A stretch of 62,612 nt of DNA, filler included, from Globobulimina sp. (GCA_003354225.1; 28 parts of 28 records of this genome joined end to end with filler, not necessarily neighbours in it); one strand, 5' to 3'. Positions 6,799 to 60,200 are shown, numbered from the whole stretch's first letter. Made by a program: numbers and translations. Notes: generated from the letters alone by a model not told the origin.

Positions 6799-6808
6799 GT
6801 GCAAGGAT
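6799..6808 (-). repeat. ATCCTTGCAC dispersed motif copy, downstream of Nup155
   Basis: Exact GTGCAAGGAT on the + strand. Confidence 0.8.
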
Positions 6809-6966
6809 AATGTATACAATTTCAAAGGAAAAGTGTTTCAAACATGTTCTATTCTAAAGTATGTTGACTAAACAAAGTGGATCCAAAGAGAATATTTAAT
6901 TTAAAAAGACAAAGTGAAAAACCTTAAATAAAAAAGAAAGCTTTGTAAATATCATTAGAGTCTTCT

Positions 6967-8868
6967 TTAAAGAGAATATTGTTCCGCCAACTCATGAAAT
7001 TGTTTTGTTAGCTCAATAATCTGTGGTGCATTCCGTCGATTATTTTGCCGTTCTAAATAATTGATACAATTTTGAATTAAATCTTGTGTATTTGAGGTGG
7101 CAGAAATAATCGAATGAGAAGTATTGACCAAAGTACCTAACCGCGGATTGGCATAATTATTATTATTCAAACTATTGCTATGATTCATCGGTTGCGCCGG
7201 TATTTTTTTTGTAATTAAATAATAGATCGATTCAATAATATTGATTTTATATTCATTTTCAATTTGATTCAACAAATACTTGTAATTCTGTATTAATTCC
7301 ATATATTTAATATCTTTGATCTTCGGATAAATGGCATCAATGATAATCGTATTGGAGGGCAACTTATGTGTTTTGTAATTGGTTTTATTTAAATACAATA
7401 AAATGCTGCACATATCAAACATCCATGGCTGTTGTTGCAAATTATATTTATTTACAATTTTATGAAAATTATTCAATAAATGTGTGGTCCATTCGTTTTT
7501 ATACTTTTTTATAATATTTGCAATGTACAACAACCAGCATCCATTCACATGTTCGATGGTGGAGCCGTCGTTGGTAAACGATAAACAATCCAATGCATAG
7601 GAAAACAGTTCATATTTCTTGGAAATTAAATAAATCCTCTCCAAATTCAGCAATTTATAATTCAAATCATGCAAATCCTGCTCCTCGACCTCGCAATGGA
7701 TGTGGCCATGGCCGCCATTCTCCCGCTCCTTCTCCATTTGCACAATGTCGTGGTAGATATTTAACTGAATGCCGCATAAAATTGATTTTTCCTCAAATTT
7801 ATTGTATTTGTCAGTGATCACATTATGCGGATTATATTGCGATGATTTTATAGTATTTAACGACTGTTTGGTGGCTCGCTTTGCTTCGATTAAAAAATTA
7901 TTCCTTTCTTCTAACTTAAAACCATTTGATTTGGTCAACGCGTCTAACAATTTGATCATTTTATTGATGTCATGATTCTCTTTGTAATAATACACCAATT
8001 TTATTAATCGATTATTCCGATCCACAGCTTGAATGTTATTGTTTTCACTTAAAAAGCCCTCCAAATATCGCGGTTTGTATCGAAACAAAGTATTTATTAA
8101 TTTGTTGCGCAAAAACCATTCATAAAATTTATAATGGAAATCGCGATTAGTTTCGTTTAAACATAATCGCAAAACCCGTTCCTTGGAATGCGACAATAAG
8201 TTATTATTACTCATCGAAATGCCGTCGCAAAGATTATTAGCTCCCACATACAAAATGCGCAGACATTTAAATATCTCATCCCAGGCCATAATAATGCGAT
8301 TGTTCAAATCTTTCATCTCGATCTCAAAATGTTGAACTTGCTCGTTTTGCTGGTACACATTGGCATTATTTTCCTCTCGCTGTTGGACTTGCAATTTCTG
8401 CTTAGAAATATCGTTGATTTTGCGGATTAATTTGTTTTGCAACGTAAACACTAATTTAATAGCACCGTTATAATATTTGTAATTAATTAATAATTTACAC
8501 ACATCGGAAATGTCAAACGATTTATCGTCGCAAACCTGTCCATTACATACAAAATAAAAGAAAATAAAAAGTATAAAGGCAAACCTGTTCAAACATTGAC
8601 AATGATTTCTCCAATAACTCGCCGCTGTTATTTAGCTGCGATTTGGCTAAGAATGTGATCAATTGCGCAGAGGTGAAATATGTGGGACAGTCCGCGTGCA
8701 ATTTACGAATGTCCGTATCGGATAATTTTAATATCATTAACGATATGATGGATTTCAATAAATTGTAACCGCAATCTTTCGTAATTAGCTGTTCAAAGCA
8801 GATATGATGCAATAAATTCTGGTCTTGCGGCGATAATAAATCGTAAATATTGCTAAAAAGACAGCGAC
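6967..8868 (-). CDS. NUP155: Nucleoporin Nup155/Nup170-like C-terminal region, intron 8536..8584, 5'-partial
   Basis: CPTYF..., FHYKFYEWFL..YLEGFL, LVYYY..LEERNNFL..IQ match the Nucleoporin_C pattern. A 49-nt GT-AG intron joins the two ORFs. Confidence 0.75.
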
Positions 8869-9005
8869 NNNNNNNNNNNNNNNNNNNNNNNNNNNNNNNN
8901 NNNNNNNNNNNNTTAATTAATTAANNNNNNNNNNNNNNNNNNNNNNNNNNNNNNNNNNNNNNNNNNNNTTAGTGTTTATTAATTAATATTATTTTATTGA
9001 TTATT

Positions 9006-9645
9006 TTATTGATCATCTTTATTTTCTTCTTGTTTATTGTCATTGCTATCATCGGCTAAGATATTTTTAATTTCTTCAGGGGATTTGCCTTTGATTAAGG
9101 TCGCTATTTTGGCACAACCTAAATGTAATAATGAGGGTAAATCCATATAATTTGCGCCGAGAATGACTTGAAATATGGTTTTTTTATTCATTTTATTGAT
9201 ATAATCGGCGTCCCATTTATCAGCAACAATTCTCTCCATCTTAACAGATCGTATTGGTTTGGCGATCTCCTCTGGTTTTTTGCCGTTATGATGCTTTAAA
9301 TATCCCACAATTAACTCCAAGATATCACCTCTCACTTTCTTAATTGGTATTTTTTTCGCATTCACATCTATTTATTATTTTATTTTTGCGAATTTGCGAT
9401 CGCAATTTCGCAACAATCAATAAATGGAATGGAATGGAATAAAATAAAATAAAATGCATTTTACCTCCTTCCAAGATAGATTTTACCAAATTGCACATTA
9501 AAGCGGCTTTACGCGATATTTCAAATTCACGCGGATTGTCATCCTCTGAAGAAATTAATATTAAACATTCATCATCGCCATCATCTAAACCACCCATTTC
9601 CTCCTCTGGCTCAGCATCCGCATCTGTTTTTGCTTCTGTTGCCAT
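9006..9645 (-). CDS. SKP1: SKP1 (SCF ubiquitin ligase adaptor), intron 9368..9464
   Basis: LILISSE..FEISRKAA..IPIKKVRGDILELIVGYLKHH..WDADYI..ILGANYMDLPSLLHLGCAKIATLIKGKSPEEIK. Confidence 0.95.
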
Positions 9646-10110
9646 TTTGCAATTATTAATTTACTATCGACTTAAAAAAAAGTTACAATGATCAGATGGG
9701 AGACTCTTTTTTTTTACTTGAAGTTTTGTTTAGATTTCATAAACAAGAATACTAAAATAGAAGAATATGCAACCAAGCTGAAAACCTTGTTCAGTTCGAG
9801 TACCCTATGAGTAGAGCAGCAAAGCTCTTGGTATGTTGTTCCTGATGTTATGTTTAGTCTGTTTGCTAATTTTGAGCAAATTCGACGAGAATAATGTATA
9901 TAAAACATAACTCGGTTCACAGCCCCAGTAAAAATACCATAGGATTTTTGGAGATTTGGAATTGGATTTTCGAAGGAAAATTTGATCATAGATGTATTTT
10001 AGAATTGTATGGTATGTTTTATTTTGATATTAATGAATCTGAAGATTGATTCATTGCAATCTATTTATTATTGCATTAAAGTACATTTTCGCCCTTTTTT
10101 AACATATTGT

Positions 10111-10165
10111 GTGGCTGCTCGGTAGCACTGGTTCACACCGATCAGGTTCGACTCCTGTGCGCCAC
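10111..10165 (+). ncRNA. Miniature tRNA-like element (55 nt)
   Basis: Acceptor-like stem GTGGC/GCCAC, arm TGCT-cggt-AGCA, arm GGT-tcac-ACC, and T-arm CAGG-TTCGACT-CCTG (B-box). Confidence 0.6.
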
Positions 10166-10405
10166 GGGTATGTCATGGGGCGATTGGTTGATTGGTAAAT
10201 GCGGATATGGAACAATGGAATTATGGAAGTATTAATTCAGATGAATATAAAAACCCATTGCAAATCGGTGAGGAATATATTATTGTATGCAAATTATTTG
10301 TTGTTTTATCCATGAAAAATAAGAAAATATTAAAACAATTTAATGGTGCTGAATAATTGGCTCTTTTCAAACTGCCAGAACAAAAGTATAACATATTATA
10401 TATAA

Positions 10406-10696
10406 CAGAAATTATTCAGTTTGCTAAAGGTAATAAGCAGTGCAAAGTGATCAAAAATCAATAAGGAAATACACTTATACACAGTTGACTTTTTAGGTTC
10501 ACACTTCTAAACACTTCTTTTGTGATTGGCAAGGTTTTTAGGTTAGCTAGGGTGGTTTTCAACTTTGAATACTAGGATTCGAACACTAGGTGAATTAAAA
10601 TATATTGATGATATCAAATATTTACAATGTAATATTAAATATATATTTTTTGATCACTTTGCCTGCTTATTACCTTTAGCAAACTGAATTGTTCTG
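10406..10696. mobile_element. MITE-like element with ~45-bp terminal inverted repeats
   Basis: ATTCAGTTTGCTAAAGGTAATAAGCAGTGCAAAGTGATCAAAAA (10414-10457) is the reverse complement of ~10647-10689 with one indel. The ~190-bp interior is non-coding. Confidence 0.7.
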
Positions 10697-11043
10697 AAAG
10701 TTTGTAAACAAACAGAGTTCATTTCATACAATGTTTTAGTCAATTTACTGAATTGAGGCCATTAAAACAAAAAGAAAAAAAAAAGAAAAAAAGTATGAAT
10801 ATGCACAGGATAGTTAGATAATATCTAGGGAGGTCAAATTGGTTCCCCGCTCATCCCATGTAGGTAGAAATGAGAAATCCTATAACAAACACAAAAAGTA
10901 TATAATTTATAGTAGATGTACGTCAATTGGTGGTGCTAATAATTAAAATTTAAACTTGTCAAAAACATTTGTTACAAACACTTACAACAATAACAATAAC
11001 AATAACATACCATAACAAAACAATTATTTATTTATTTATTTAT

Positions 11044-11110
11044 TTATGCCCAAATGCGTAGTATTTTATCCCAACAGCCGGTAGCAATGGAATAGCCATT
11101 GGGCGCGGCC
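11044..11110 (-). CDS. G-protein beta subunit, last 21 aa
   Basis: AAPNGYSIATGCWDKILRIWA* matches the G-beta C-terminal ATGSWD..LRIW motif. Confidence 0.7.
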
Positions 11111-11210
11111 NNNNNNNNNNNNNNNNNNNNNNNNNNNNNNNNNNNNNNNNNNNNTTAATTAATTAANNNNNNNNNNNNNNNNNNNNNNNNNNNNNNNNNN
11201 NNNNNNNNNN

Positions 11211-11642
11211 TTGCCACTGCGTTTGTTGAGTCTGATCATTCAGATAATAAACTTTATTCTGCTCAGTATACGCTTTCCTCCATCCAACTGGTAATTCTTT
11301 CTCTTGCTCCATTGTTAAAACTGGAGGAACATTCACATATGTTTCAGTTTGGTTATTTTTCTTAGTTTGTTTTCTTTGTTGGTTTTGATGAATATATTTT
11401 TCTTTCATAATATCTTTATCTTTTTTATCTTTGTAGCCCAAATAAGAGAGACATATTGAAATTATGATAGTGATTATTCCATACGTGATACCACCAATAT
11501 AATACAGTAAATATTGTACTGACAAATTTAATCCACGCAATATGTTACCACCAACAGCATATAACACGATGATCAAAACTATAATGAAACATATAGCATA
11601 TTTAAAAATATTTGAAGTGCAAAGTTTTTGTCTGAGATTCAA
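11211..11642 (-). CDS. Membrane protein with WW domain (partial)
   Basis: Two TM segments, then LPVGWRKAYTEQNKVYYLNDQTQQTQW. Confidence 0.75.
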
Positions 11643-11838
11643 TTGATTTTGAACCGGTGCAAGTTGAAATCTTGAGATTTGTGTGGATTATAGCACCTTT
11701 ATATAGGCTCCTTTGCCATTGACTTAGTAACTGTGTGACTGAAGTGTTTAACTTAAAGTTTTCTAGTTACATATTGTATTGTCTTTACCTTTGAATCCTA
11801 CTTCCTATCTCTAGCAACCTAAGCAAGTATACAAGTCT

Positions 11839-12063
11839 CTACATTTGTTGATGTTGAATTGGTTTTTGTTGCTGCCGATGATGTTGTTGGTATTGATGAT
11901 AACATGATGGACAAAGATCATAATTGCATTTACGACAACTATACACATACACGTAGCCGGAATGGCGGGGTGGAATTGTAATACCGCATCTGTCACATCT
12001 CACGGATGCTAATCCATGTGAAACACCTTGTAACCCTCCATGTGGACATGATGCTTGAGACAT
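11839..12063 (-). CDS. ZZ-type zinc-finger exon or small protein
   Basis: CDRCG...YSCRKCNYDLCPSCY. May be exon 1 of the WW gene. Confidence 0.6.
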   Translation of the reverse strand: MSQASCPHGGLQGVSHGLASVRCDRCGITIPPRHSGYVYVYSCRKCNYDLCPSCYHQYQQHHRQQQKPIQHQQM

Positions 12064-12270
12064 AAAAACATTCACTGACTGACACAGACTAATTAAGTAT
12101 TCATGGCTTGTTGGAAACATTTTTCGTTTATCATTGATACAAATATCATCACTTACTGAGCTTTATGTTTGATGGAAATTGTGCGCGCGGGATAAGAGTA
12201 AATTGATTTATACGCAAATAAATTACATACACTCACTGCAGACAAAATAATAAAGATCGTGATTACCCCA

Positions 12271-12299
12271 AACTAAGCGTTGCGTAGCAACGCCTAGTT
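12271..12299. repeat. GC-rich hairpin ending in CTAGT (Helitron-3'-end-like)
   Basis: AACTAAGCGTTGC-gta-GCAACGCCTAGTT, a 13-bp stem with one mismatch. Confidence 0.45.
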
Positions 12300-12442
12300 C
12301 GGAGATATCATGATTTCTATGTTCAAACAATCACAATAAAAAATTAAAAATAAAAATAATATAAAGATATATAAGCACATAGCTACTATAATCAATTAGA
12401 TACATACACAAATATATGAGTAATAAATAACTAAATTCCTAA

Positions 12443-13352
12443 TCATTGATCACGTCTCTGTAACAATTGTTGGATACATGTTTGCATTGCGGAGTGATGC
12501 TGTTGCAATCTGTCACTTATAATTAGCTCATTTAACTGATTTACTTGGCCTTGTTCTTCCAATAGATTATGAAGAAATTCTTGTAAATTTGTAGATTTAG
12601 CGGTCAAATGCTTGATCATTATGTTATCTTTTTGTCGATCTTCCTCACATTGAAGCAATTTCGCCTTATATTCGTTGCATTGTTGCTGCGATTCATTCAA
12701 TTTTTGCTGCATTTTACTTTGACCAGCACGGCTTTCTTTGTTTGAACCTATTTGCAAAATATCAATGGCACATTCAGATCTTTCCAAACATTTACAATTA
12801 TGTTGATATGGCACTAATTTATGTTGATCGTAAACATCCAAATATATGGCACACGGCGTTATTGTCGCAGCTTTTGTATTTTTAATAACTTTTAATGAGA
12901 TTGCAATATTGACATTGATATTTATTCCAATATTCACAATCCAAACAACTTCAAAATAATATCCGGGTCCATCTTTATCAAATTTTATGATTGGTAGTAA
13001 ATGGATATTATCCACATTATCATTTGCATATTTTCCAAGTCGATATAAAAACTCTTCTTTTGTCAATTCAAGAGATATCGCGCACTTTGTTGCTTTGGAG
13101 ATTTTATTAAAAATAGGAATGTTATCTCGATTGTTCCATTTAATTTTATTTTTTTTATGAATATTAAATATTTTTCTTCTTTGATTTTCATCGCGAAGAA
13201 TATTTTCAATTTCCTTTGTTACCTTTTTCATATTTTCAATTTTTGACAAACATATTGCATCCATGGATAGTTTTGTTAGGTTATTGGCAGAGATTCCATC
13301 TTTTTCCTTAATTTGCGTTTGTGTATACATACAATCGTTGCTTTTCCAAACA
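12443..13352 (-). CDS. Hypothetical protein with C-terminal coiled coil (5'-partial)
   Basis: ORF of about 300 aa with a Q/E-rich heptad tail. Confidence 0.55.
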
Positions 13353-13615
13353 NNNNNNNNNNNNNNNNNNNNNNNNNNNNNNNNNNNNNNNNNNNNTTAA
13401 TTAATTAANNNNNNNNNNNNNNNNNNNNNNNNNNNNNNNNNNNNNNNNNNNNTGTTGTAAACGTATTGCTCAAAGAAAAGCTCAGAAACAAAGAAGTGAC
13501 GCAACAGAACTGCAAGTTTCTTTGCTACGTGACTCACAACTTTAGATCTTTGAATTATTCACGTCTTGTTCAGTTTGGCCGGCATGTTGATGACTAGTGT
13601 CAATAAAGTGTTTTT

Positions 13616-13625
13616 GTGCAAGGAT
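13616..13625 (-). repeat. ATCCTTGCAC dispersed motif copy, downstream of the SAP/BRCT gene
   Basis: Exact GTGCAAGGAT on the + strand. Confidence 0.8.
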
Positions 13626-13701
13626 AAAGTTAGTATAAACTGATAGTGGTTTACTATTAAATTTATTCACTGCGTGCACACTTTAAATTAAAATGGAATG
13701 A

Positions 13702-15312
13702 TCACTCAATGGCAGGTAAATCAGCAGGCACAAACCGGGAAACACATTTCCAAGCAAGAATAGGAACATTTTTCAAAATATCTGCCATTTCTGCATTATC
13801 GTTTCCGTTTTTATTGTTGATGTTATTGTTATCAACAATACATTTTACTGCATTCAAAATCTTTGATTCGCAAAAATCAATCCGTAATGTCATTGGCCAA
13901 TACGTTGAAAATATCTTTGGATTTGTATTGATTTCCTCTTCCAAATTCATAGCAACACCAATGATTTTCTCCAATTCATAAGAATTTGCATAAATTGCTT
14001 CTAAATATGTATCATCCGATAAATTATACTCATTTTTCTGTCCATTCTCTTTAATAAGTTCATCGACACTCTCTTTCAATTCATACTCACCAATCATAGC
14101 CACACCGTATCTCTTCGCATCACGATATTTCTCATCCTCATAACTATATCTTTTATTTTTTTTGCTAACAATCAAATAATTAATTTTCGATGTCACTCTT
14201 TGTTTAATTATGCCACCATAATATTGCACTAAACCATACACATTGGAAATGTCATCAAATTTATCATCATTTACGACAAATAACATTCCGTTTAAATATT
14301 TATTTGATAAATTTCCATGCGATATATACACCATTGAATCAGCACAATGATGTCCAAAATCCATATCATATTCATCTGATTCATACTCTGTAATAATATC
14401 TGTATTGCATTTAATAAAACTGGTACAGTCTCCATAATATTTATGTCCATTGATACTCGCCAATATTTCTCCAGTTTTGCGATGTTTTACTTGGCCAAAA
14501 CAACCCGTATTTGTATCTTCATCGCCTTCCCATATTTCCAATCTGCACTCAATTTCTTCGCCGCTTTTGCAAATTATATCAAAATCCGTAATGGAAACAT
14601 TAATATCATAATTATCTTTCTTCTCATACTCAGATATTTGTAATCCGGGGACGTGTTTCAGCGGCAATCTGTTCACAAACTTAACCGGCCTCACATGATA
14701 ATGTTGGAAATATTTAGCATCACCATCCAATATTGCACCATTTATATATTTTGTTCGTGTCTCATTTACTTTTTCTTTGTCATTCCACCAAACATTTTGC
14801 AAATTTTTCTTGCTCTCAGCGATGGTTTGCTGCAAATCATCTGTTTCTTGGTTATAATTTTCTGACCATTTAAATGCTTTTTTATCGCATATTTTTCGAA
14901 TTTTATAATTAATCTTTTTTTCAGATTTTGTATTTTGTTTTTCTTTCTCGAAGTTATATTGTGATGAAAGCCGCTGTTTTTTTGTTGGTGGTTGTTGAAT
15001 ATCATTATTTCGCGCATTTCCATCCAAATATCTTTCAATTAAATCTGCTTTGGACGCTTTTAACGTGGATAAACCTTTTAATTTTAACTCAGCCATAATG
15101 CCTTTAACTGGTAATTGTTTTATTATACCTTCGTCGATATCGACTATGCATTCGTTTTCTAAATGTTCAATCATAATTTCTTTAGTTTTTGATTTACTGG
15201 ACACCTTTGCATTTCTATTGAAAAGTAATCTCATTAATGTCTTGTTTGATAAGTCATCAACACATGATTCACCCCATGCAGTTTCTATTGAGTCCCTCTT
15301 TCTGGATGTCAT
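13702..15312 (-). CDS. SAP-like plus BRCT domain nuclear protein
   Basis: SAP-like LPVKGIMAELKLKGLST..KADLIERY; NLS PPTKKQRL; BRCT-like LNGMLFVV..YGGIIKQRVTSKINYLIV..KYRDAKRYGVAMI. Confidence 0.7.
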   Translation of the reverse strand: MTSRKRDSIETAWGESCVDDLSNKTLMRLLFNRNAKVSSKSKTKEIMIEHLENECIVDIDEGIIKQLPVKGIMAELKLKGLSTLKASKADLIERYLDGNARNNDIQQPPTKKQRLSSQYNFEKEKQNTKSEKKINYKIRKICDKKAFKWSENYNQETDDLQQTIAESKKNLQNVWWNDKEKVNETRTKYINGAILDGDAKYFQHYHVRPVKFVNRLPLKHVPGLQISEYEKKDNYDINVSITDFDIICKSGEEIECRLEIWEGDEDTNTGCFGQVKHRKTGEILASINGHKYYGDCTSFIKCNTDIITEYESDEYDMDFGHHCADSMVYISHGNLSNKYLNGMLFVVNDDKFDDISNVYGLVQYYGGIIKQRVTSKINYLIVSKKNKRYSYEDEKYRDAKRYGVAMIGEYELKESVDELIKENGQKNEYNLSDDTYLEAIYANSYELEKIIGVAMNLEEEINTNPKIFSTYWPMTLRIDFCESKILNAVKCIVDNNNINNKNGNDNAEMADILKNVPILAWKCVSRFVPADLPAIE

Positions 15313-28921: not shown

Positions 28922-29144
28922 TAGGGTTTTTGCTTTTAGTTCATTTCTTCAATGAACGCTTTGATAATTGAAGAAAAAAAAACTTTTGTCATTTAGAAAC
29001 ATAACATTTTGCTTTCGTCATGGCACTCAGCGAATTNNNNNNNNNNNNNNNNNNNNNNNNNNNNNNNNNNNNNNNNNNNNTTAATTAATTAANNNNNNNN
29101 NNNNNNNNNNNNNNNNNNNNNNNNNNNNNNNNNNNNTTAGTAAA

Positions 29145-29567
29145 ATGAACAAACGAATCCGTTTATCCCTCGGCCTTCTGACCATTGGAACCTTTCTCTT
29201 AATGAGCACTGCTTATGGTCAGGATTCAGATGAAGCAGCCCTGGCTAAAGCCACCCAGAATCCCTTGGCTGCCATGTACAGCCTGCCCTTTCAAAACAAT
29301 ACCACCTATGGATATGGCACCTATGACCGTGCTCAGAATATTTTAAATATACAACCTGTTTTGCCCTTCTCTCTGGGAGACAAGGTTAACCTGATCAACC
29401 GAATTATTCTGCCTATCATTACCCAACCTTCCTCCACCGAGGACGCAAGTTCAACCGGACTGGGAGATATGAGCTGGTCGGCCTGGCTTTCACCTTCGAA
29501 AGGAGGGAAGATTACCTGGGGCCTCGGGCCGGTCCTTCAGTTGCCCACATCTTCTTCCAGTGAATTT
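29145..29567 (+). CDS. Bacterial outer-membrane protein fragment ('neuromedin U'-annotated / MetA-pathway transporter-like family)
   Basis: Signal peptide, LAKATQNPLA, LNIQPVLPF, INRIILP, GLGD, WGLGP..LPT. GC is higher than the flanks and the gene is abruptly truncated. Confidence 0.75.
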
Positions 29568-30127: not shown

Positions 30128-30321
30128 TAGCTATAGCCTAGGAATATTAACCCACGACGGGATGTTCTTGAGTTGAGCGACTGTTTTGGGAGTTAAAGAT
30201 TTTGACGCTCAACTTTTTTTTGTTGAGCCATTTTGGCCCTTAAAATAACGAACCACTTTTCTTTTTTGTGGAAGAAGTACTTTTTTAATCAAGCAATCAC
30301 AACATACAGAATAGAGTGAGA

Positions 30322-30331
30322 GTGCAAGGAT
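30322..30331 (-). repeat. ATCCTTGCAC dispersed motif copy, intergenic
   Basis: Exact GTGCAAGGAT on the + strand. Confidence 0.8.
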
Positions 30332-30435
30332 AAAACAAACTGAATCCCTAATAATAAATATTCAAAAACAACAGGAATTGGTGGATTCTTCACAATTGAT
30401 GTTACATATATACATTTAACTCACCAGCCCTCAAA

Positions 30436-30884: not shown

Positions 30885-31276
30885 CTAACAAATAGGATAG
30901 TCGACCCAATTAAAATTCTCATCAGTTGGAGCATTATTCATCAGTATCTCAACCATTTTTTTTTGAAAATACCATTTTGCCTGAAATCTATCCCGAATAT
31001 CTTTCCTTGGGGCACATTTCTGTATTTTTTGTACAAACTCATTTGGTATGCCATTCAATCCGTGAAAGACACCCATAACTCCCCCAACAATGCAGGCGTT
31101 CGTATCTGTATCACCACCCTCTCCAACCACACTTTTAATGGCATCATAATATGAATGCTTTTTCAATAAATGGAAGCAAACCCTTTGAAATGCGATCTTT
31201 ACAAAACCTTTGAACTCTGTCGCTGTCTGCAACTTTTCCAAATCATTGCCATCCACATATTTCAACCAATCATTCA
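30885..31276 (-). CDS. ADP-ribosylglycohydrolase (ARH/DraG family), C-terminal fragment
   Basis: GGDTDTNACIVGGVMG..G..IP signature. Confidence 0.85.
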
Positions 31277-35443: not shown

Positions 35444-35689
35444 TCAAGACAGCATTGATAACAAATTGCCAAAAAGGCCACCACTGTTCCTCGGCAATGG
35501 TATACCTAAACATGTGTTTGCAGCTCGTTGCAATAAGGAAATCAATCGCGGATCGACTCGAATTAACGGTTCATATGTTTTTATCACCACATTATATAAA
35601 ACAACACTTTTCCTCTCAATGCTTTCACAAAATAAATCACAGAAATTTTCCAATGGATGTCTTAACGACGGGCCTCTTATCTCATCTCT
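35444..35689 (-). CDS. GET4: GET4 last exon
   Basis: HPLENFCDL..YEPLIRVDP..GGLFGNLLSML*, preceded by an AAACAG acceptor. Confidence 0.65.
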   Translation of the reverse strand, partial: RDEIRGPSLRHPLENFCDLFCESIERKSVVLYNVVIKTYEPLIRVDPRLISLLQRAANTCLGIPLPRNSGGLFGNLLSMLS

Positions 35690-35721: not shown

Positions 35722-35731
35722 GTGCAAGGAT
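35722..35731 (-). repeat. ATCCTTGCAC dispersed motif copy, inside the GET4 intron ~32 nt upstream of the exon
   Basis: Exact GTGCAAGGAT on the + strand. Confidence 0.8.
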
Positions 35732-35989
35732 CCAACAAAAATAAAGCAAAACTAANNNNNNNNNNNNNNNNNNNNNNNNNNNNNNNNNNNNNNNNNNNNT
35801 TAATTAATTAANNNNNNNNNNNNNNNNNNNNNNNNNNNNNNNNNNNNNNNNNNNNGATTGCTTGCCAGCAGCGTGGATTAATTAAAAGTCCTCACTCTAT
35901 TGCCTCTACTGTCTCTCCATATGGTTTATAATCCATTTGCAAAATAAACCTCCACATAGAAAATCGATAATGGTAAATGCAACAGAAAT

Positions 35990-38542: not shown

Positions 38543-38890
38543 ATGAATGAAGTTATATACGAGGTCAATTTGGAAATACAGAAAGAGTATGCAGAGGACT
38601 ATATGAATTGGTTGCGACCACATATTATGGATATGCTAAAATTTGAAGGATTTATATCATGCACCATTAGTAATTTTGAGCGAGTGAAAGAATTTAATGA
38701 TCCTCAAATTGTCGGGAAAGTAGTAACATATCGTGTAAGATCAAGAGAAGATTTGCTGCAATATTTTGATTTTGGAGCCACGAAAATGAGAGGACAGGCC
38801 ACAAATAAATTTAAAGGGAAATTTAGAGCATGGCGGCGCGTGATTGCACCTAAAGAAAAGTATCAAATCCTTGCAAAATCAAAATTGTAG
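38543..38890 (+). CDS. DUF4286-like protein
   Basis: IYEVNL..YMNWL..HI.DML..EGF..Y..S..DL..YF..A..MR..KF..F.A.RRV pattern. Confidence 0.7.
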   Translation: MNEVIYEVNLEIQKEYAEDYMNWLRPHIMDMLKFEGFISCTISNFERVKEFNDPQIVGKVVTYRVRSREDLLQYFDFGATKMRGQATNKFKGKFRAWRRVIAPKEKYQILAKSKL

Positions 38891-38945
38891 AAAATTAATT
38901 ATATATAACGACATTTAATGTAACTTTCTTGCTTTAATCTACGGA

Positions 38946-38955
38946 GTGCAAGGAT
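38946..38955 (-). repeat. ATCCTTGCAC dispersed motif copy, between convergent genes
   Basis: Exact GTGCAAGGAT on the + strand. Confidence 0.8.
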
Positions 38956-39116
38956 ATATATTTCATATTTCACTGTTTATGGCTTAAGCACAGCAATTGC
39001 AAAGACATAACAATCTAAAAACACTTTAAAAGTAACACTTAAAAAAAAGAAAAAATAACATAATAGTGGTACAATCATCTGCTGTGACACTTTTTTTTTT
39101 GTATTATTAAATAAAA

Positions 39117-39632
39117 TTATTTTTCTTGTTTATGCTCATCCTGTTCCTGGATGGTGTTATTTCTCCCATACGCCATTAATTGTAATTCAATTGTGGCAGA
39201 TTTTGTTAATAAATCTATTCTATGATCCATAATATTTTTTAAATTTTTAATTTGCTTTAATTCAGAAGTAACATCAGGAAACGTATAGACATACGACCAC
39301 CACGATTTTTTATGTTTGGTGCATTTTTCTTGTACAGAATCCAATTGTGCTTGGATTAAACCCATTGAACTATGTAAATGTTCAAAACAAACCTTTATTG
39401 TAGCTCCGCATTTCGGTAAAATAGGTTCTAAATCTTCTAACAATGCTTTGATTGTACTTAATGATGCTTTTACATCCAATTCAATTAACACTTTGGTCAT
39501 ATCCGGATGGGTTATTTCCATTGATATTATTCCTTCCATCGCTAATACCAATTTACCTGCCACTTGATATGCCATTGAATGATTTATTCCTGAAATAAGT
39601 GACGATGCTGTTGCAAATGCTAACGTTTCCAT
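39117..39632 (-). CDS. Helical-bundle hypothetical protein
   Basis: Complete 171-aa ORF; ELDV..L..I...H..SWWSY. Confidence 0.65.
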   Translation of the reverse strand: METLAFATASSLISGINHSMAYQVAGKLVLAMEGIISMEITHPDMTKVLIELDVKASLSTIKALLEDLEPILPKCGATIKVCFEHLHSSMGLIQAQLDSVQEKCTKHKKSWWSYVYTFPDVTSELKQIKNLKNIMDHRIDLLTKSATIELQLMAYGRNNTIQEQDEHKQEK

Positions 39633-40407
39633 TATTATGATAGATTGGCGTTCCTTATTGATTATGATTTATGGGTAATTAATAATTAAGCGGGAATTGC
39701 TGAAGTAGCTGAACTGCAAAGTTTTTATTTTAATTTTCTGCCAGTGACGCTGAAAAACTTTTAATTAAAATTCAGCATTTATGAACTGTAAACATCGTGA
39801 TTGTTGTTTGCGTTCTAACAACGAGAAAATCCACTTGTTTATTGACAAGGACACAACGGGCAATGTATAAATTCAACTCTTTTCAATTTTATCCACATCT
39901 TTAAATAGTTAGTATCAAATAAATGTATATTAGATTTTAATTCATTACATATTTTATTTGCATCTTTTTCGTGTTCATCACACAAAAAACACCATTTTGA
40001 TGATTTCAAACATATGATAGTGGATATTGAGTCGCATTCACATAATTTCATTTGTGAAAATGAACATTTTTGATTTAGTCGTGTATTATTCACTGATAAT
40101 TCAACTGTATATGTTCCAATCGCATCATATTTAGTGATATTATTAATGCCATTTTTTCTTGAATAAACTATAGATTTATCATCAGGTTCTATCTTTAGAG
40201 AAAAAAATAATAAAATAAAATTGTAGACTAAGTNNNNNNNNNNNNNNNNNNNNNNNNNNNNNNNNNNNNNNNNNNNNTTAATTAATTAANNNNNNNNNNN
40301 NNNNNNNNNNNNNNNNNNNNNNNNNNNNNNNNNCTTCATTCTCTTCTTCACTCTCTTCTTCTTTCTCTTCTTCACTCTCTATATATTAAAACAAAAAACA
40401 TAAAATA

Positions 40408-49185: not shown

Positions 49186-49285
49186 NNNNNNNNNNNNNNN
49201 NNNNNNNNNNNNNNNNNNNNNNNNNNNNNTTAATTAATTAANNNNNNNNNNNNNNNNNNNNNNNNNNNNNNNNNNNNNNNNNNNN

Positions 49286-51609: not shown

Positions 51610-52521
51610 ATGAGTAAGTATTTTGTAAATATAATAAAGATACCAATAGGTGTTGATTTTTCCCATTCAGATGACAATGAATCATTGATTGTTGAAAATG
51701 TAGTAAAAGATTCAATTGGTAATCAATTGGGAATAAATGTAGATGACATATTGATTGCAATTAATGGACATTCGATTATAAACGTAAGTTCTGAAATTGC
51801 ATTCCATTTATTCCGTAAACAATCACTACCATTTACTGCTACATTTGAAACATTAGAAAAAGAAGAAATTATTTCATCATTAGATTATGTTTGTAACGGC
51901 AGTGAGCGTACAATATCAAATTGTAGTTATTATGATCATCAATTATCAGGTTCTATGAAAGTACATTATGGCTCCAGAACTAATGAAAATATGTTTAATT
52001 ATTTTATGGAGAAGGAATATAGTGATTTTTTTGATGTTTATGGTAAATACAATGATATGAACTGCAATAAATATATGATTTCGTCAAATGCCTTTTATAG
52101 CGGCTATCATGAATTTACAATCAAGATATTAAAATGCGATGTGTATAGACAGGAAATTGGGGTTATCAGTAATTTGAATGCAAAAATTAATATAGATAGC
52201 AATGATGGAATATGCGGCACATCAAAATTTGGCGCAAGAGCTGTTTATGGAAATGTATCGGAAACAAATGAAGCTTATTATGCGTCATACAATAAAAATA
52301 ATACAATTCGATGTAAAAAAAAATTATTATCAGCACATCAAATTAGTTGGTGCTCTCAAAGTATTGTTACCGTAAAATTAGATTTAGACAAAGGAAATAT
52401 TAAATTTTATTTAAATAATAAAAAAGTGCGTAAAACCATCAGTGTCGCAAAAAATTTAATATACCATCCGATAATATCGTATTTTGGTGATTGCCAATAT
52501 AAACTTATCAATTATACATAA
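51610..52521 (+). CDS. PDZ plus SPRY domain protein
   Basis: IGVDF..LIVENV..GINVDDILIAING (PDZ); SGYHEFTIKILKCD..EIGV..VKLDLDKGNIKFYLN (SPRY). Confidence 0.75.
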   Translation: MSKYFVNIIKIPIGVDFSHSDDNESLIVENVVKDSIGNQLGINVDDILIAINGHSIINVSSEIAFHLFRKQSLPFTATFETLEKEEIISSLDYVCNGSERTISNCSYYDHQLSGSMKVHYGSRTNENMFNYFMEKEYSDFFDVYGKYNDMNCNKYMISSNAFYSGYHEFTIKILKCDVYRQEIGVISNLNAKINIDSNDGICGTSKFGARAVYGNVSETNEAYYASYNKNNTIRCKKKLLSAHQISWCSQSIVTVKLDLDKGNIKFYLNNKKVRKTISVAKNLIYHPIISYFGDCQYKLINYT

Positions 52522-52949
52522 TACTACATCTTATTGCTATTCATTTTGTATTCTCAGTGTTCTGTGTGTAGTGTGTATCTAGTTTTTAATCTTTTGTTTA
52601 GATTTTAATGATCTTCGTGTGTTTTGCTGTGTTTAGTACGTTGTATCCTTAATTTTTTGTTGTTTTTGGCAAATTAATTGTTTTTCTTCATTACGCCTCA
52701 TGTTCGACCACAGAATTATCATCAATATAATTTTGGTATTTGCTCCATGTTGACAATGATCATCACGTTGTCTTTGCTATAATTATTATAACAGCTGAAC
52801 CACGCACAATACATATCAATTATGAATATATTTTTGTAAATTATGTTAATCATAATCCTAAATATATTGAAACATTATTCTATTTTTATTCTTTCCCTCT
52901 GACTTAAAACACAAAACAACAAAAGCAACAAAAGCAACAAATCAAAAAA

Positions 52950-53399
52950 ATGTTTACAACAGAAAAAAAATATGAATATGCTGAGAGAGTGGTGCAAAAC
53001 TGGTGTGATTGGTGTGATAATTTATGGTCAACCAAAAAAGAATGGGAAATTAAAATATTCAAAGACATGTTTTCCGATAATGTACAGATTGGATGGCAAG
53101 GAAAGTGGACAATCGGTGTTGATCAAGGTTTCAATGCATGGAAACCTGCACAAAATGCATTCGCTTCAAGTGAGGTGGTATCGTATGACATTGATACATT
53201 TAGTGAAACAATGGTCTCCTTTAAAATTCACCAAGTAATGAAAGAATGGGATGGAAAACAAACATTTTTAATTATGCACTTCATACTGGATTTGGATAAA
53301 CAGGGAAGAGTCTGTCGGCAAACTGGTACAGCGAAACCGAAATATGCTGCTTTATTTAACAATGCTTTAGTTTCATATTTTGCTGCACAGAGCAAATAA
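52950..53399 (+). CDS. SnoaL/NTF2-like fold protein
   Basis: 149 aa; DMFSDNV..G....G..W..LDLDKQGRVCR pattern. Confidence 0.5.
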   Translation: MFTTEKKYEYAERVVQNWCDWCDNLWSTKKEWEIKIFKDMFSDNVQIGWQGKWTIGVDQGFNAWKPAQNAFASSEVVSYDIDTFSETMVSFKIHQVMKEWDGKQTFLIMHFILDLDKQGRVCRQTGTAKPKYAALFNNALVSYFAAQSK

Positions 53400-53761
53400 A
53401 TTTTGTTGCAAAGAGTGATGGTGGTATTATTTTATTAAACCTTCAAGACAAATAATCCAATTCCCACCATCTTGGATTTTTAATTTATTTTTTAAATTTT
53501 ATTTTCTGCAGTCTTTGATCACTAATAATGTCCATAATGGCTACTTTTTTTCTCATCACAATCAGCCTAATAATGTCGTGGATTTTGATGAAACATTTGA
53601 ACTGCGATTTGAATTGTTTATTTCAATAACGATCGCTCTTCGTATGGGTGGACTATTAATTNNNNNNNNNNNNNNNNNNNNNNNNNNNNNNNNNNNNNNN
53701 NNNNNTTAATTAATTAANNNNNNNNNNNNNNNNNNNNNNNNNNNNNNNNNNNNNNNNNNNN

Positions 53762-53969
53762 TGGATAAAGGCTGAGATGCGGATAAATCTGATATTAATT
53801 TAATAAATGAAGGACAACTCATTGATATCGAACCTCTATCGGTCATGCCATGCTTTATCAAGAATTGTTTGGCCAGTTCGAGATGGTTGGCTTCGATCCA
53901 TTTATCAAAATCAAAATCATCACCTTCACCTTGGATTTGGTTATGGATTGTTTCTTCGAGACTTGCCAT
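53762..53969 (-). CDS. N-terminus of a SAM-like domain protein
   Basis: FDKWIEANHL..KQFLIKHGM; partial. Confidence 0.4.
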
Positions 53970-54031
53970 TATCTCTGAACAAATAGTTTTGACAATGTCA
54001 AAAGATGTGGCCTATTTAGTTAAAAAAAACA

Positions 54032-55899
54032 ATGAACATACTAGCATCGAGGCAACAATGGCATAAATACTCTAAATTGCAAACATTAACATTTAATCGT
54101 TTATTTTGTGCCGACGCATTATTTAAACAATCATTGTACACCATACCAAACGATAAACCATACCGTCAAATATTACTCGCAGACAGTAAATATTTTTGGA
54201 TTCGATTCCAAAATGAAACCAATACAGATTTTTCAACCATGACTGTCGATGATCAACCTCAACATTCGCCGTTCCCACACAACGAAACTGCTTACAATAC
54301 AAATGCAGCCAATACGTTTAATGGCAGTACGCATTTAAATCGATGGTGGAATGAAATAAACGGTGGATATTTTTATATTTACTCGAAAAACAATAATCAC
54401 ATCAATCATGCAAGAAATTTGCTCAATAAATTTTGCCAAAACATTGAATACTTTGAGCTACCAAATGCATATTCCATCCATGCCATTATTGGAGAATCTG
54501 GCTCAAATCGCTTGAAAATTCAACAACTATGCAATGTGTCATTGTTCCTCAATTTTAATAAACCCACTCAACTTTGGATTATATCCAAACAATTCAACCA
54601 TTCTCACCAACAAAAACAAAGGAAAAACATCAAAGATAGTTTGATATTAATCCAGCAATTAATAAAACCGTTGGAATACAAAATAGAATCGAAATTTTGT
54701 TACTTAATCATCAAAAATGCGCGGCATTTAAATCAAAAACATGATGTATTAATCATATACAATAAAAGCAAAGACAACTCACAATTTGCTTTATCACTCA
54801 CTTTAAACATTTATGGCTTTGAGGAAAATATAAAAAAGTGCATAAATGATATTGAGCAATGTATAAAAAATGATTTGTTTGAAATCAAAGTGGATCCGAA
54901 ATATTTTAATTTGATCATTGGAAAGGAAGCTTGCCATTTGCTGCAATTTGAATATTTATTGAATGTGGATTTACATTCGAGGAAACATCAATGTTTGATT
55001 GTGTTCAAAGCGAATGATAATACAAATATTGTTAAGTTGGATGAAGTTAAGCAATATATTTCAGATATTATTCAACATAGAATCTGTACGTTTGATGGAG
55101 TGAATAAAATGCGGTTTCAGCGATTGCTGAATGTGTCGGAATGGAAAGATATAAATAATATTACTTTTGAATACAATGCGAAAACAGAGAGACTGTCATA
55201 TTGGATCGATTTATGTTTGTATCGAGAGAATGGAATGGCTGATATTCAACAGTTGAATGAAGAGGAACAGGTTGAAAATTCATTGGCGTACAGTTTGCAG
55301 CTCGTTCATTACTCATATCATATGGACAGATTTTAAGCATTATGTATATGAGTAATGATGACTGCAAATAATAATTTTAATTAACAGGCGATTAAGGAGA
55401 AAGCGGATAAATTGATCGGATATTATTGCTTTGATGAGTTTATGAGTTATATTGATATTCGCGAGGGTTTTATGCCTTTAATTCGAGGGGTTGATGGAAA
55501 ACATATTCTTGAGTTGACCCAACACTGCAAACAGGATTTTCAGCAAAATGTTGCCAAATATAACCGGATTCCTGTTATTATGCCACAAAATAAAACAAAT
55601 GTGTTTGTGAATAAAAATGAAAATGGAAATGAAAAGGAAAAGGACAGAGAGTATATATTGGATACGTTTATGAGAGATGATAAAAATGGGAAATATGAGA
55701 ATGAGTCACATCGTGTATGGATATTTAGTAACAATGCGGAATTGTTACGGTTGCTTAAGATATGTTTATTTAATTTGTGTAAGAATGGAGAGATATTTTA
55801 TATTGAGACAATGTTTCATGATTTAGAAACGGCAAAGAATTTCTATGTTCCACAAGGAATGTTAGAAACAAAAACAGCAACAAAAGTGTATTCCAATGG
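54032..55899 (+). CDS. Multi-KH-domain RNA-binding protein, probably mitochondrial, intron 55271..55387, 3'-partial
   Basis: AIIGESGSNRLKIQQ, LIIGKEAC and LIRGVDGKHI KH loops; basic N-terminal presequence-like region. Confidence 0.65.
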
Positions 55900-56729
55900 N
55901 NNNNNNNNNNNNNNNNNNNNNNNNNNNNNNNNNNNNNNNNNNNTTAATTAATTAANNNNNNNNNNNNNNNNNNNNNNNNNNNNNNNNNNNNNNNNNNNNT
56001 AATTGACTTCTGCATACTTCCACCAAAAAGAATTTTTTGAAACAGCTTTTAAATGGTCGAAATCTACCTCCATCTTCTTCCTGTATGAGTTGTTACCACT
56101 CGTTGTCAAGTGATTGTGCTAAAAAAACTTGAGGTATACTTGAGGTAAGTGATTTTATCATGTGTATCGTATACCAGCTTCCTGAAGGGCTTATAACATT
56201 CCAACGCTACACAGGTACAACAAATAAAGTATTTAACAATTTTACAAAGTTAAAAGTTCATAGCATCAATAACACCAAAGATAGAAAAATTGTCATATTA
56301 TCACTTTATAATGACAAATCTCAAAACAAGGTCCATGTGGATTTGGCAATTGTTGATTCAAAATCTGAAAATTTGTCTGAATCCGAAATGTTTATAAAAA
56401 CGTACATAAGTCATGATGCGAAGCACCATTTCGATCAACATTTATCTCAAACGCTAACACTTAACAATAATGAGTGTACACTGCCGGTGTCTACTCCAAA
56501 GAGTGAAAACTGGCCAAGTAAATAACTTTAAACAGAAAATTAAATGTTGTGCATTACGCAGATGATAAAATTATTGCAATTATATGTTCAGAAGGATGGG
56601 ATTCTGGTATTCATGAATGGTCATTTAAGATCTTAGAATGTAATATAAACAGACACGAAATCGGTGTTGTTGGTGTTTCCGATTATCAAATATATTATCC
56701 GATTATTTCGTTTTGTGGCCATTGTCGTT

Positions 56730-57214
56730 AAGAATTGATGATTTGATGTTGTCTCATTGTGATTTGGTAAGTTCCCAAATGCATAGATCCGATGCTGTGA
56801 GTTATCACAAACGCTTTGCAAATCTTGATTGAATAAATTTGCATATTTTATAGAGTCATATTTATCATTGGATAAGAAATCCAACCAAGGATTGGCTAAA
56901 GATATTATTGTGCGCGTTATGCTGTGTTTATCCATAAACTGTAATTTTGAATTAATATCAAAATATTCACTTCCTAGTTTGCGATTGTTTTTAATCTCGA
57001 CATCTGATGGTAATATCACTAAACGATCCTCGTTTTTATCATTTACAATTATTTTGGGAATTTCTTGCCGGCTTTTTAACAAATCAACGTATCGTGGCAA
57101 GTAAACATGACTGTGTACATCTATGCATTGTGATGGTAATGCGATGTTACTGAAATGTCTAACATGTTTGATATGGTTCAATTGGTTTGAAGAGGGCCGG
57201 ACTCGATTGAGCAT
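56730..57214 (-). CDS. Amidohydrolase-2 family decarboxylase (isoorotate / uracil-5-carboxylate decarboxylase-like), N-terminal part
   Basis: IDVHSHVYLPRY..LL..R..IP..RLVILP..KLQFMDKHSI..ISLANPWLDFL. Confidence 0.8.
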
Positions 57215-58605
57215 GCAAAACAAGGCGGTTTTTAGTGACTTCGGTCTGAATAATGCACGCCATTTGCTATATATCACAGCAAATATTACTCGGAATATAT
57301 GGCAAAACCCCAAGCCCATTAGAATCAGAATCCATATTGGAAGAAATAATTGAAATAAAAAAAGAGTCCGTTAGAATTAGGTATCCGATTTGGAGTTGGT
57401 ATGCAATCTGTAATAATACAGCAAGTACTCATAAACTCAATCGCATCAAAGCTTGGATTAATACAAATAAATAATGAATCACTACGTAATATAGCACCAT
57501 CTGATGCATTAAAACTATTCCTTTCGACAAGTCTTCCATTTATCGCAACCTTTGAGAAATCCATTACAAATTTTATTGATGTCGATGATCATGAACCTGT
57601 AAAAAAAACACAATGTAAATACGATATAGATATTGCATCACTATTATTAGAAACAAATAGCAGTGATTCAGACAATTAATCAAGTGTCGATTGTGATGCA
57701 CAGTCGATTGTGTATTCTCCGACATGCGAATCCGAAGTGGATATATATAGTCCTTCATTAGTAACACCTGTACCAACACCATATCATAAATTAGGGAAAA
57801 CGCAAGAAAATGTTGATCTGTTAAAAGATTTATTGTGTGATAATGCAAAAGCAATCCGATTGAGTAAACTGTGGGAAAGTGATGATCCATATGGACCTTG
57901 TTTTGAAATTTGTCATTATAAAGTGATAATCGCGAAATTTGAAATGGCCATAACTTCTGGAATATTGATGCTACGCTAATTCTTTCTGGTGCAAAATTTC
58001 GAAACGACCTAAAAAAAATTGACATCTACCCCAAGTATACCTCAAGTATTTCGTGGAAAGAAATTGACATAACCTTTGAAATATTGATGCTACGCAAATT
58101 CTATCTGTTGCAAAATGTTAATAATTGACTTCTGCATNNNNNNNNNNNNNNNNNNNNNNNNNNNNNNNNNNNNNNNNNNNNTTAATTAATTAANNNNNNN
58201 NNNNNNNNNNNNNNNNNNNNNNNNNNNNNNNNNNNNNCAATTATGTATAACTAAAGAGCGCTATGAATTGAAACAAGACAAAAACAATTGTTTCAATTCG
58301 ATTTGTCAGGATGTTGAGAGGATGTTGAGGTTTTAAATCTGCACTCCTCATATATTTTGTACTTATGATTATTTCTGATTCATTTGAACGCAATCGAATT
58401 AACCGCTGTATACTATTCAAAATAAAAGACGCTGTCATTGTTCATCAGTTTTTTGTGGTTTCACATAAAAATTTTGTTAAATATTTACACAAGTCAAGTC
58501 GTTTGAATGTAAACGCTAACAAACAATCATCATTACCTATATACACAACACAACATAACATAACAAGTTTAATATTTAATTACATATTGAACTATATCAT
58601 TGTGG

Positions 58606-60200
58606 ATGGCAACCCAACCACCAACCGATGAGCCTGGCGCAGACGAAACCATATTTGTCCGTGTCTACATAAACAAACAATATGAGTTGACAAAAGGCTT
58701 TGATCATCACCAAGATCTCTGGAAATTGGCAGAATTGGACAAATCCAAAATTGATCTTGAAAGTTTAAGAGAGGACATACCGCAGGCCTTTAGAAACGCA
58801 AAATGGATTGTACCATTATTCCAAAACACAAAAGAATACGAATGGAAAATCTTCAGCCACCATAAATCCAAAGCCGACCTAGAAATGGAAGAAGACGATG
58901 ACTTGGAAGAAGATATCCGTTTATTTATGAGCAGTGATTCAGATGGATCGTCCGATGGTGATTCAGTTACCAATGAAGATAAATACTTAAAATTAAGAGT
59001 GGTATTCTTCAAAAAAAGTGTGTTTGCTTTATACATCACATAACATTTATCCTTGCACATAATATATATCTTATCCTTGCACACAGTCTTCGAAGAGGAG
59101 GATGACGATAAAAGCGAGCCAGACATAGAGGTACAAACAAGCGATGGTAATAACACTGACATCAGCCACAATGACAATGAATTGGAAAGACCGAATCCAT
59201 CCGATTTAATACCACCCGAATTGAGTATAAAGCGCATCCGCCATATCTACGTAGCCCAGGAAGAGCGCATGGCTTTATTAGCCGACTTGGAATGGATAAT
59301 ATCCACTGCCACATTGGACTACTACCCCTCATGTAACTTCACCTTCGATATCAAGGAAAACCTACAATTCACCCAACACGAATACGTGTCGCGCATCACA
59401 GACAACCAAACGAGTGTCGATTTATCCCCGTTGGAAGTGGACACGCCGTACGAGTTTCAAATCAGAATGTTCGACCCTGAGATGATGCCATCCGTAGCAC
59501 CCTCGCCATGGAGCAAACCTCTGCGTGTCCCCGGCATCAAACCACCGAAGAGATTGCCCACTCCCACATGCTTGCAAGTGACTACCTTATTGCCCGAAGT
59601 GGTGCAACTTCGATGGGACCCTGGCTTTGCGGCCTCCCCCACACAAAATGTCATGTATGTCATTAAGGAGTACTTGCAATTCAGTCAACATCCCTTCGTA
59701 GCGCAGTATGCGTTGCCCACTGGCAAACTATCACCGTTGAAGCCCAATACCCGCTATCAAATCACGGTATATACCTCAAGGAATGCCAGTGATTCGCCCG
59801 AAAGTAAGCCGTTATCCATCATGACGCCGTCGATCCAGTTCGAGCAGTTATATCAAAGTGGCAAATATAAGCCATCTCCGCCCATTAATATCGAGCAGAT
59901 TGTGGATAGAAAGTACAATGAGATATTGTTAATGTGGAGCATCCCGCCCAATACATTTGGAAATGTGATCTTTTATCAGATCTTAGACTTACCGCAACGA
60001 GATGTGTTCACATTGTACGAGTTGCCGTGTCGGATACCGCGGCCAGAGAGGGACCTTCATGTCCGGATTGTGACCGTGGTGCGGATTAATGTGAATAACG
60101 CCAATGTTGAGTTGAAATCTGCAGCAACGCGGATTAAATTGACAGGCGTCAACATGGAAACACCTCGGGGTCCCACTAAATCGATGAAGGGAAAGCCATA
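58606..60200 (+). CDS. Fibronectin type III repeat protein, intron 59018..59086
   Basis: FN3 motifs LEVDTPYEFQIR..SPWS, VQLRW and LKPNTRYQITVY..SPES. Confidence 0.8.
59049..59082 (+). repeat. Two tandem TATCCTTGCAC copies inside the FN3-gene intron, the second 4 nt from the 3' end
   Basis: Exact ATCCTTGCAC at 59049-59058 and 59073-59082, followed by ACAG. Confidence 0.85.

Follow-up and report, generated by a model that had tools for sequence, protein, structure and literature searches.

Short, specific words in nucleosome-free non-coding DNA are well known from the sites of yeast Reb1, Abf1 and Rap1 and from insect boundary and promoter words such as DRE; they lie near gene starts and ends, are sometimes paired, and have promoter, boundary or roadblock roles. 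Plant Myb-related (SHAQKYF-type) boxes share a TATCC/GGATA core, ciliate chromosome-breakage sequences consist of a strictly conserved, dispersed non-coding word of ∼15 base pairs (bp), and in trichomonads and diplomonads fused branch-site/acceptor motifs stand at a fixed distance from the acceptor in essentially all introns. In introns of the minor (U12-type) spliceosome, the 5′ splice site reads RTATCCTT and the branch word TCCTTRAC lies ∼10–20 nucleotides (nt) upstream of the acceptor. For foraminifera, almost nothing is, to our knowledge, known about the organisation of nuclear genes and the way they are read. Here we describe a decamer, ATCCTTGCAC, that recurs in a 62,612-nt stretch of DNA from the foraminifer Globobulimina sp. 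(GCA_003354225.1; the whole stretch is referred to as the window). In its 11-nt form, TATCCTTGCAC, we tentatively read it as a lineage-specific, high-information recognition site of a putative DNA-binding factor of the promoter or boundary type.

The window is composed of 28 contigs of 2137–2142 nt apiece, linked by 44 Ns, a 12-nt stop-codon spacer and another 44 Ns. ATCCTTGCAC is found in it seven times in exact form, at 6799, 13616, 30322, 35722 and 38946 on the minus strand and at 59049 and 59073 on the plus strand, compared to a mean of 0.02 copies in 100 dinucleotide-preserving shuffles of the window (maximum 1; none of the 100 reached seven). The copies are spread over six of the 28 contigs (contigs 4, 7, 14, 16, 18 and 27), and six of them extend to the 11-mer TATCCTTGCAC; in the copy at 35722 the first T is replaced by G, giving GATCCTTGCAC. 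Coordinates, strands, spread and extended form all agree with a preliminary description of the window, which had been made from the sequence alone and whose chance estimate of ∼0.05 copies was of the right order. Its statement that every copy is non-coding with unrelated flanks also held: none of the seven copies overlaps coding sequence, and blastn searches of ±250 nt around each copy against the window found nothing between copies above a 22-nt match (E=0.09). Near-variants are not enriched, as the 11-mer with up to two mismatches has 22 matches compared to 15.06 expected, and six of the 100 shuffles reach 22. Apart from the seven copies, there is a single one-mismatch match in the window, located within a long open reading frame (ORF). 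The copies, and two features of the genes that harbor some of them, are the following:

6799..6809, minus strand: TATCCTTGCAC, 157 nt after the stop of the nucleoporin-like ORF 6967–8631 (minus strand) and 72 nt from the contig end
13616..13626, minus strand: TATCCTTGCAC, 75 nt after the stop of a BRCT-like ORF of 542 amino acids (aa)
30322..30332, minus strand: TATCCTTGCAC, between tandem minus-strand genes, with the stop of one 103 nt before it and the ATG of the next (MEDTQ...) 194 nt after it
35447..35689, minus strand: last exon of GET4 (Pfam GET4 positions 187–256 of 257, E 7.9e-08)
35722..35732, minus strand: GATCCTTGCAC, sense, in the last intron of GET4, 30 nt to the first AG, the inferred acceptor
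38946..38956, minus strand: TATCCTTGCAC, in the spacer of convergent ORFs, with 160 nt to the stop of the minus-strand ORF and 55 nt to that of the plus-strand DUF4286 ORF
59018..59086, plus strand: intron of the FN3 gene in its shortest frame-keeping model, 69 nt, GTGTGT...ACAG, acceptor not fixed
59048..59058, plus strand: TATCCTTGCAC, copy 1 in the FN3-gene intron, sense
59072..59082, plus strand: TATCCTTGCAC, copy 2 in the FN3-gene intron, sense, 24 nt after copy 1, its end 4 nt before the first possible acceptor

The preliminary description had proposed to look for the word in relatives, and the same 11-mer was indeed found in related low-GC, eukaryote-like contigs of other collections. 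Public metagenome contigs were scanned for two copies within 31 nt, which gave 72 loci; four of these were kept (L023, L040, L048 and L039), and the other 68 were dropped as unrelated tandem repeats, phage-like or bacterial, based on GC content and context (plus similarity). The pair scan of prokaryote genomes yielded 18 loci, one of which was kept (L089) and 17 of which were dropped, and the 11 loci from viral contigs, all representing one phage-like 28-nt repeat, were rejected. The accession prefix of L023, L040 and L048 is described as that of contigs left unassigned in a metagenome from a foraminiferal (Globobulimina) association (PMC6783311). L039 carries two identical 11-mers and shows 75% nucleotide identity to window 30970–31239 in a shared ADP-ribosylglycohydrolase gene. 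An Rfam scan of these four metagenome loci returned weak hairpin matches only.

L089 led to a 3.1-Mb bin, G001, labelled Gammaproteobacteria, in which the exact 11-mer occurs 18 times compared to 0 times for a reversed control. The motif-bearing contigs of G001 have a GC content of 28–37%, and among their genes are those of a ubiquitin hydrolase and a protein kinase. Under its Gammaproteobacteria label, the bin holds low-GC eukaryote-like contigs beside truly bacterial ones (L104, L105, L107). L107 is truly bacterial, with RpoD followed by a CCA-encoding tRNA-Met, and its copy was therefore counted as a chance match as expected in 3.1 Mb; a role of the word upstream of tRNAs was dropped for the same reason.

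Across 20 copies, seven from the window and 13 from related contigs, the motif takes the extended form T-N-T-ATCCTTGCAC-W-C around an invariant core, CCTTGCAC, with T at position −1 in 19/20, T at −3 in 17/20, T or A at +1 in 18/20 and C at +2 in 11/20 copies. Judged by its conservation, the word is under selection, because it is identical in lineages with 25% divergence of their coding DNA and is kept among paralogues as the flanks change; it is also non-coding and lineage-specific. This supports the real, lineage-specific, non-coding element that had been proposed at the outset.

In the window, the copies stand either a short distance upstream of a 3′ splice site (twice in FN3, once in GET4) or 75–160 nt after a stop codon (157, 75, 103 and 160 nt for the four copies concerned), as the preliminary description had it, but this placement does not extend to the relatives. 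There, copies are found in sense orientation upstream of the ATGs of ORFs of 249–355 aa, at distances of 39 and 187 nt in L104, 18, 59 and 194 nt in L023, 57 nt in L108 and 88 nt in L111, and in L102/L113 the motif lies 52 nt upstream of the ATG. Other sense copies follow the stops of one gene family, by 22 nt and by 2 and 22 nt in L048 and by 22 nt in L106, two of these cases lying between convergent ORFs; convergent-ORF spacers with copies are those at 38946, L048 1914/1934 and L106. In L108 a copy is located 164 nt after a stop. The pair of L039 occupies a ∼110-nt spacer of divergent genes, at 23 nt from where the gene on the opposite strand has its ATG, and two copies are antisense, that of L105 between tandem ORFs of 205 and 245 aa and that of L110 44 nt after a stop. 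Because of these 5′, divergent, antisense and paired contexts in the relatives, the motif is not tied to 3′ splice sites or 3′ ends, and the specific link to splicing or 3′-end processing that had been suggested for it is not supported in view of the copies upstream of ATGs, between divergent genes and, in L105, antisense in a tandem spacer.

The gene family of L048, L106 and L108 is a multi-copy one, with an N-terminus MAS[AV]KKRK... and a C-terminus ...YKFN. Its members carry the motif or a one-letter variant ∼45–57 nt before the ATG, and the motif again 2–22 nt after the stop.

We favor, with due reserve, a recognition site on DNA. A sequence-specific protein would read the word on DNA rather than RNA and would act wherever non-coding DNA is accessible, that is, close to promoters, in the spacers after genes and in short introns. 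The word would then represent a promoter or boundary element ('general regulatory factor' or insulator-like), often in pairs, and binding of the factor could result in promoter activation, nucleosome exclusion or a transcriptional roadblock. As is typical of a DNA site, the word is confined to non-coding DNA and kept where the flanks diverge. Further support comes from its enrichment in exact form, its presence in all kinds of non-coding context, its homotypic pairs and, in some relatives, its place in a promoter-like module with a palindrome (pairs and module are detailed below). Among the alternatives listed in the preliminary description, a 'DNA-level signal' is therefore the direction that the evidence favors.

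Several points weigh against a DNA-binding site. The motif is sense in both intron loci, with the first AG more than 10 nt downstream as a possible acceptor, and sense in three of the four tandem-gene spacers, as expected for an RNA element. Taken together, these contexts able to test strand (two intron loci and four tandem-gene spacers) include five sense cases and one antisense case, so that the strand bias claimed earlier is suggestive only; in a crude automatic count of 39 copies no bias is detectable (10 sense and 9 antisense relative to the downstream ATG-ORF, 21 sense and 17 antisense relative to the upstream ORF end), and this count is noisy. Sites of transcription factors usually tolerate degeneracy, and here all 10–11 motif positions are fixed. 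Moreover, only a minority of the contigs (6 of 28) carries the motif, and the functions of the carrier genes have no common theme. Finally, the relatives are bin contigs or unassigned metagenome contigs, assigned to the same lineage by their GC content, their genes and the presence of the motif.

The serious rival, possible though less probable in our view, is an RNA-level cis-element that is read from the transcribed strand, be it in introns, 5′ leaders or 3′ untranslated regions. It could be a strong branch-site or 3′-splice-site-proximal signal for splicing events of a special class, in cis or possibly of the leader or trans type, or else a site for an RNA-binding protein or a complementary guide RNA. 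The intron copies speak for it: three copies at two loci lie in introns confirmed by homology, on the sense strand at both. ORFs 58606–59017 and 59087–60375 are exons of one gene, to both of which the Bolivina argentea protein P0004 (1013 aa) aligns unbroken, with 57% and 48% identity. The donor is confined to 59018, 59020 or 59022 (GTGTGT, GTGTTT or GTTTGC) by the exon string KYLKLRVVFF, present with full conservation in P0003 and nearly so in P0004, and both motif copies are enclosed by all 26 of the 26 frame-preserving GT-AG pairs. Used as an acceptor, the first AG following copy 1 keeps the frame. In GET4, an in-frame stop is located just upstream of the last exon and the motif lies in the preceding intron; the 30 nt to the first AG point in the same direction. 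Likewise, the first AG after the motif is found 2–10 nt before the ATG in several 5′ cases (L104-1133, L023-892, L102/L113 and 13616), and exactness at every position would suit base pairing.

Against an RNA element stand the antisense cases, located between tandem ORFs in L105 and ahead of the ATG of the opposite-strand gene in L039, and the absence of any following exon for copies between convergent ORFs (38946, L048-1914, L106). The distance from the motif to the next AG ranges from 2 to 59 nt, and some copies have no AG within 70 nt; an AG-exclusion zone after the motif, considered as a candidate feature, is not general. In addition, the motif is too rare for a general branch site, and it is embedded in a palindrome-bearing DNA block (see below).

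A further reading, which we consider unlikely, would be compatible with the exactness at all positions, with the sense copies in introns and with the lack of AG between motif and acceptor or start codon. The word may be read by base pairing with a lineage-specific small or sn-type RNA that carries its complement, defining a private foraminiferal class of splicing or leader processing in introns and in leaders shortly before start codons, or may be a DNA signal for programmed genome processing in the lineage.

An origin as a selfish or mutational product without host function, either as a mobile-element terminus or footprint or as a word spread by small duplications, appears similarly doubtful. 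It draws on the comparison of contigs of four runs, of uncertain kind, with contig 14 of the window. A contig of run X1 covers 30220–30359 with zero differences, and X1 and X5 contigs, the latter from another study, match the window from the first T of the motif downstream (edge at 30332), with upstream sequences that are unlike the window and also unlike each other. The motif marks the edge of conserved or shared sequence at 30332, where the divergence of orthologues and the boundary of a repeat look alike. The copy at 6799 is flanked by a perfect direct repeat of 11–12 nt, ATTGTATACAT (window 6785–6835), and that at 35722 by one of 9 nt. Flanking direct repeats of at least 9 nt thus accompany 2/7 copies compared to 4.5% of random non-coding positions, a weak enrichment; as repeat lengths also differ, target-site duplication was rejected.

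Tandem duplications are frequent. Seven motif pairs have a start-to-start spacing of 20–41 nt and came from small tandem duplications; L023 and L104, for instance, are distinguished by an indel of 41 nt with one copy in it. In a set of three paralogous gene ends, all (3/3) have the second motif unchanged while nearby bases vary, and one (1/3) has the other copy intact.

In some relatives the word also lies inside long inverted repeats. Seven G001 contigs (L102, L113 and L116–L120) carry a perfect 24-bp palindrome, GATCTGACAGTTAACTGTCAGATC, 3–14 nt upstream of the motif. Palindrome and motif belong to a conserved block of ∼75 nt at the center of long inverted repeats, the arms of which carry ATGATGATGGGCATGCACTAGCTCATCATCAT-like strings. 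Within this block, the motif is the exact 11-mer in 4/7 cases and has TCT or TTT in place of TAT in 3/7, with CCTTGCAC invariant. The 24-bp palindrome is absent from the window. A foldback-like structure is seen in L089/L115:1–293, where inverted-repeat arms of ∼105 nt enclose a loop with two copies 37 nt apart. L023:1–300 and L104 contain tandem non-coding units of ∼150 nt with one motif each, located after a GCGAA(A/T)ATGCG word and a T-run. The motif region of L023/L104 (633/716) includes a 20-nt perfect inverted repeat that gives a hairpin with weak matches to microRNA-precursor models. In the window, the copy at 38946 has a 9-nt inverted near-copy 70 nt away (38866–38955), inside the DUF4286 ORF. 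A role as hairpin partner was discarded, since 29 of 39 copies have no inverted counterpart.

What argues against a selfish or mutational product is that the seven window copies lack shared flanks, that the inserts between the direct repeats share only the 11-mer with repeats of varying length, and that the word is kept across 25% coding divergence and among paralogues with changing flanks, indicative of selection. As a set, the copies do not show the shared flanks, terminal inverted repeats and fixed-length duplications of mobile elements or miniature inverted-repeat transposable elements.

We regard it as quite unlikely that the word is a transcription-termination or 3′-end element, by roadblock or processing, of the upstream gene. 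Four of the six window loci lie after a stop on the same strand at the 75–160 nt given above, relatives carry the word 2–22 nt after the stops of one family (twice in L048, and in L106) or 164 nt after a stop (L108), and copies are located between convergent genes. At 13616 the stop represents a real C-terminus, because the homologue P0005 (best, E 1.3e-27) ends within two residues of it; at 38946 a homologue search for the minus-strand ORF 39120–39668 found nothing, leaving this ORF unconfirmed. However, most gene ends in the window are without the motif, with four after-stop copies among dozens of ORF ends, which does not fit a general polyadenylation or termination signal. Copies are also found in divergent spacers and introns, as well as immediately before ATGs (L039, L023, L104, L111). 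In practice, a terminator would overlap with the boundary-factor version of the DNA-binding site.

That the motif is a U12-type 5′ splice site or branch site is very improbable and largely refuted here. The resemblance noted in the preliminary description is in the letters, as TATCCTT equals positions 2–8 of RTATCCTT and TCCTT..AC resembles TCCTTRAC, and it proved superficial: donor, acceptor distances, an extra base and word counts all disagree. The only intron with a visible 5′ end, that of FN3, starts with GTGTGT, GTGTTT or GTTTGC; the donor as limited by homology thereby bears out the earlier remark that this intron begins GTGTGT and is not of U12 type. The one U12-like donor, GTATTCTT, at 59002 is excluded since its use would remove the conserved VFF from the protein. 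TATCC is preceded by T in five of the seven copies and by a purine in one, and relative to the branch word the motif has one extra base. The acceptor follows the motif end by 4 and 28 nt in the shortest FN3 model and by 32 nt in GET4. In the window, RTATCCTTT occurs three times compared to 1.61 expected, and TTCCTTRAC not at all compared to 1.06. One study reports that no minor-spliceosome components or small nuclear RNAs were identified for Rhizaria (PMC11347168), and 2.1% of the introns of Reticulomyxa are given as 'minor-like' (PMC11347168). U12 (RF00007) and U2 models gave no match in bin G001, a result that is uninformative as the controls were silent too.

Finally, an adapter, amplification primer or assembly chimera is hardly credible: three of the six window loci are no more than 165 nt away from a contig end, but contig ends are to be expected in non-coding DNA, and the unique sequence around the copies, the reproduction of the region by contigs of two studies and the presence of the motif in unrelated public collections show that it is real DNA; the adapter letters at loose ends of run contigs, the refuting case named in the preliminary description, do not contain it.

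With regard to the gene setting, the window has a GC content of ∼30–36%, and its longest ORFs reach 680 codons in the standard code with stops of all three kinds in use. Pfam matches near the motif copies include a nucleoporin C-terminal region, a WDR19-type propeller, fn3, GET4 and ADP-ribosylglycohydrolase, which together with the BRCT-like ORF represent eukaryotic genes. The nearest named proteins of the window genes are three EukProt entries of the foraminifer Bolivina argentea, with 48–65% identity, in keeping with a foraminiferal or closely related source. In one Bolivina protein, P0001, compared with the window gene 58238–60375, a ubiquitin-hydrolase domain is joined to the FN3-type region; the window FN3 gene and two other Bolivina proteins have an N-terminal domain different from that of P0001, whose arrangement reflects either domain shuffling or a chimeric transcript.

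An Rfam scan of the window found two tRNAs and nothing else, and telomere-type repeats were absent across the window, including the surroundings of motif copies and contig ends. A second frequent 10-mer, ATTTATATCA, was set aside as it resembles codon strings within ORFs. On contig 14, the plus strand of window 29137–29552 reads like the N-terminal part of a secreted protein of bacterial appearance, signal peptide included. This part is covered by none of the four compared runs, the contigs of which break at 29553 or 29557, and contig 14 may be chimeric, with bacterial DNA joined to eukaryotic DNA.

Among the matches listed, our literature search found no description of the motif, nor of a foraminiferal cis-element, spliced leader, branch point or promoter motif; the word itself appears in 126 papers, and the 20 listed of these have it in unrelated work, consistent with primers. 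As a 22-bit word at gene boundaries, outside coding DNA and conserved in diverged relatives, the motif provides a handle for the isolation of its putative binding factor. It could aid the annotation of gene boundaries in highly fragmented assemblies and can flag foraminiferal contigs that were mis-binned as bacterial, of which bin G001 is one case. If it acts at the RNA level instead, the motif would define a new class of splicing signal.

Compared with the systems outlined above, the likeness to plant SHAQKYF-type boxes is a shared core, the first five letters of the motif; it does not go beyond these five letters, and TAT is the variable part of the motif (TCT or TTT) in paralogous modules. 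In contrast to ciliate chromosome-breakage sequences, no telomeric repeats are found near the motif, and copies lie inside intact genes, within introns. With the fused motifs of trichomonads and diplomonads it has in common a conserved word at the 3′ end of short introns, copy 2 of FN3 with its ACAG being similar-looking, whereas here the distance to the acceptor is variable, at 4–32 nt, and introns hold only a minority of the copies. U12 signals share the letters TATCCTT and TCCTT..AC and, for some copies, the sense orientation near 3′ splice sites; they differ in that most copies of the motif are outside introns, the host donor is of the GT-GTGT type, the spacing is off and one base is extra. 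The Reb1, Abf1, Rap1 and DRE words may also be analogues. Although there is no sequence similarity to them, copies in short introns would be unusual and the motif is exact at all 10–11 positions, it seems to resemble them in being short, specific and non-coding, in lying near gene starts and ends, and in being sometimes paired.

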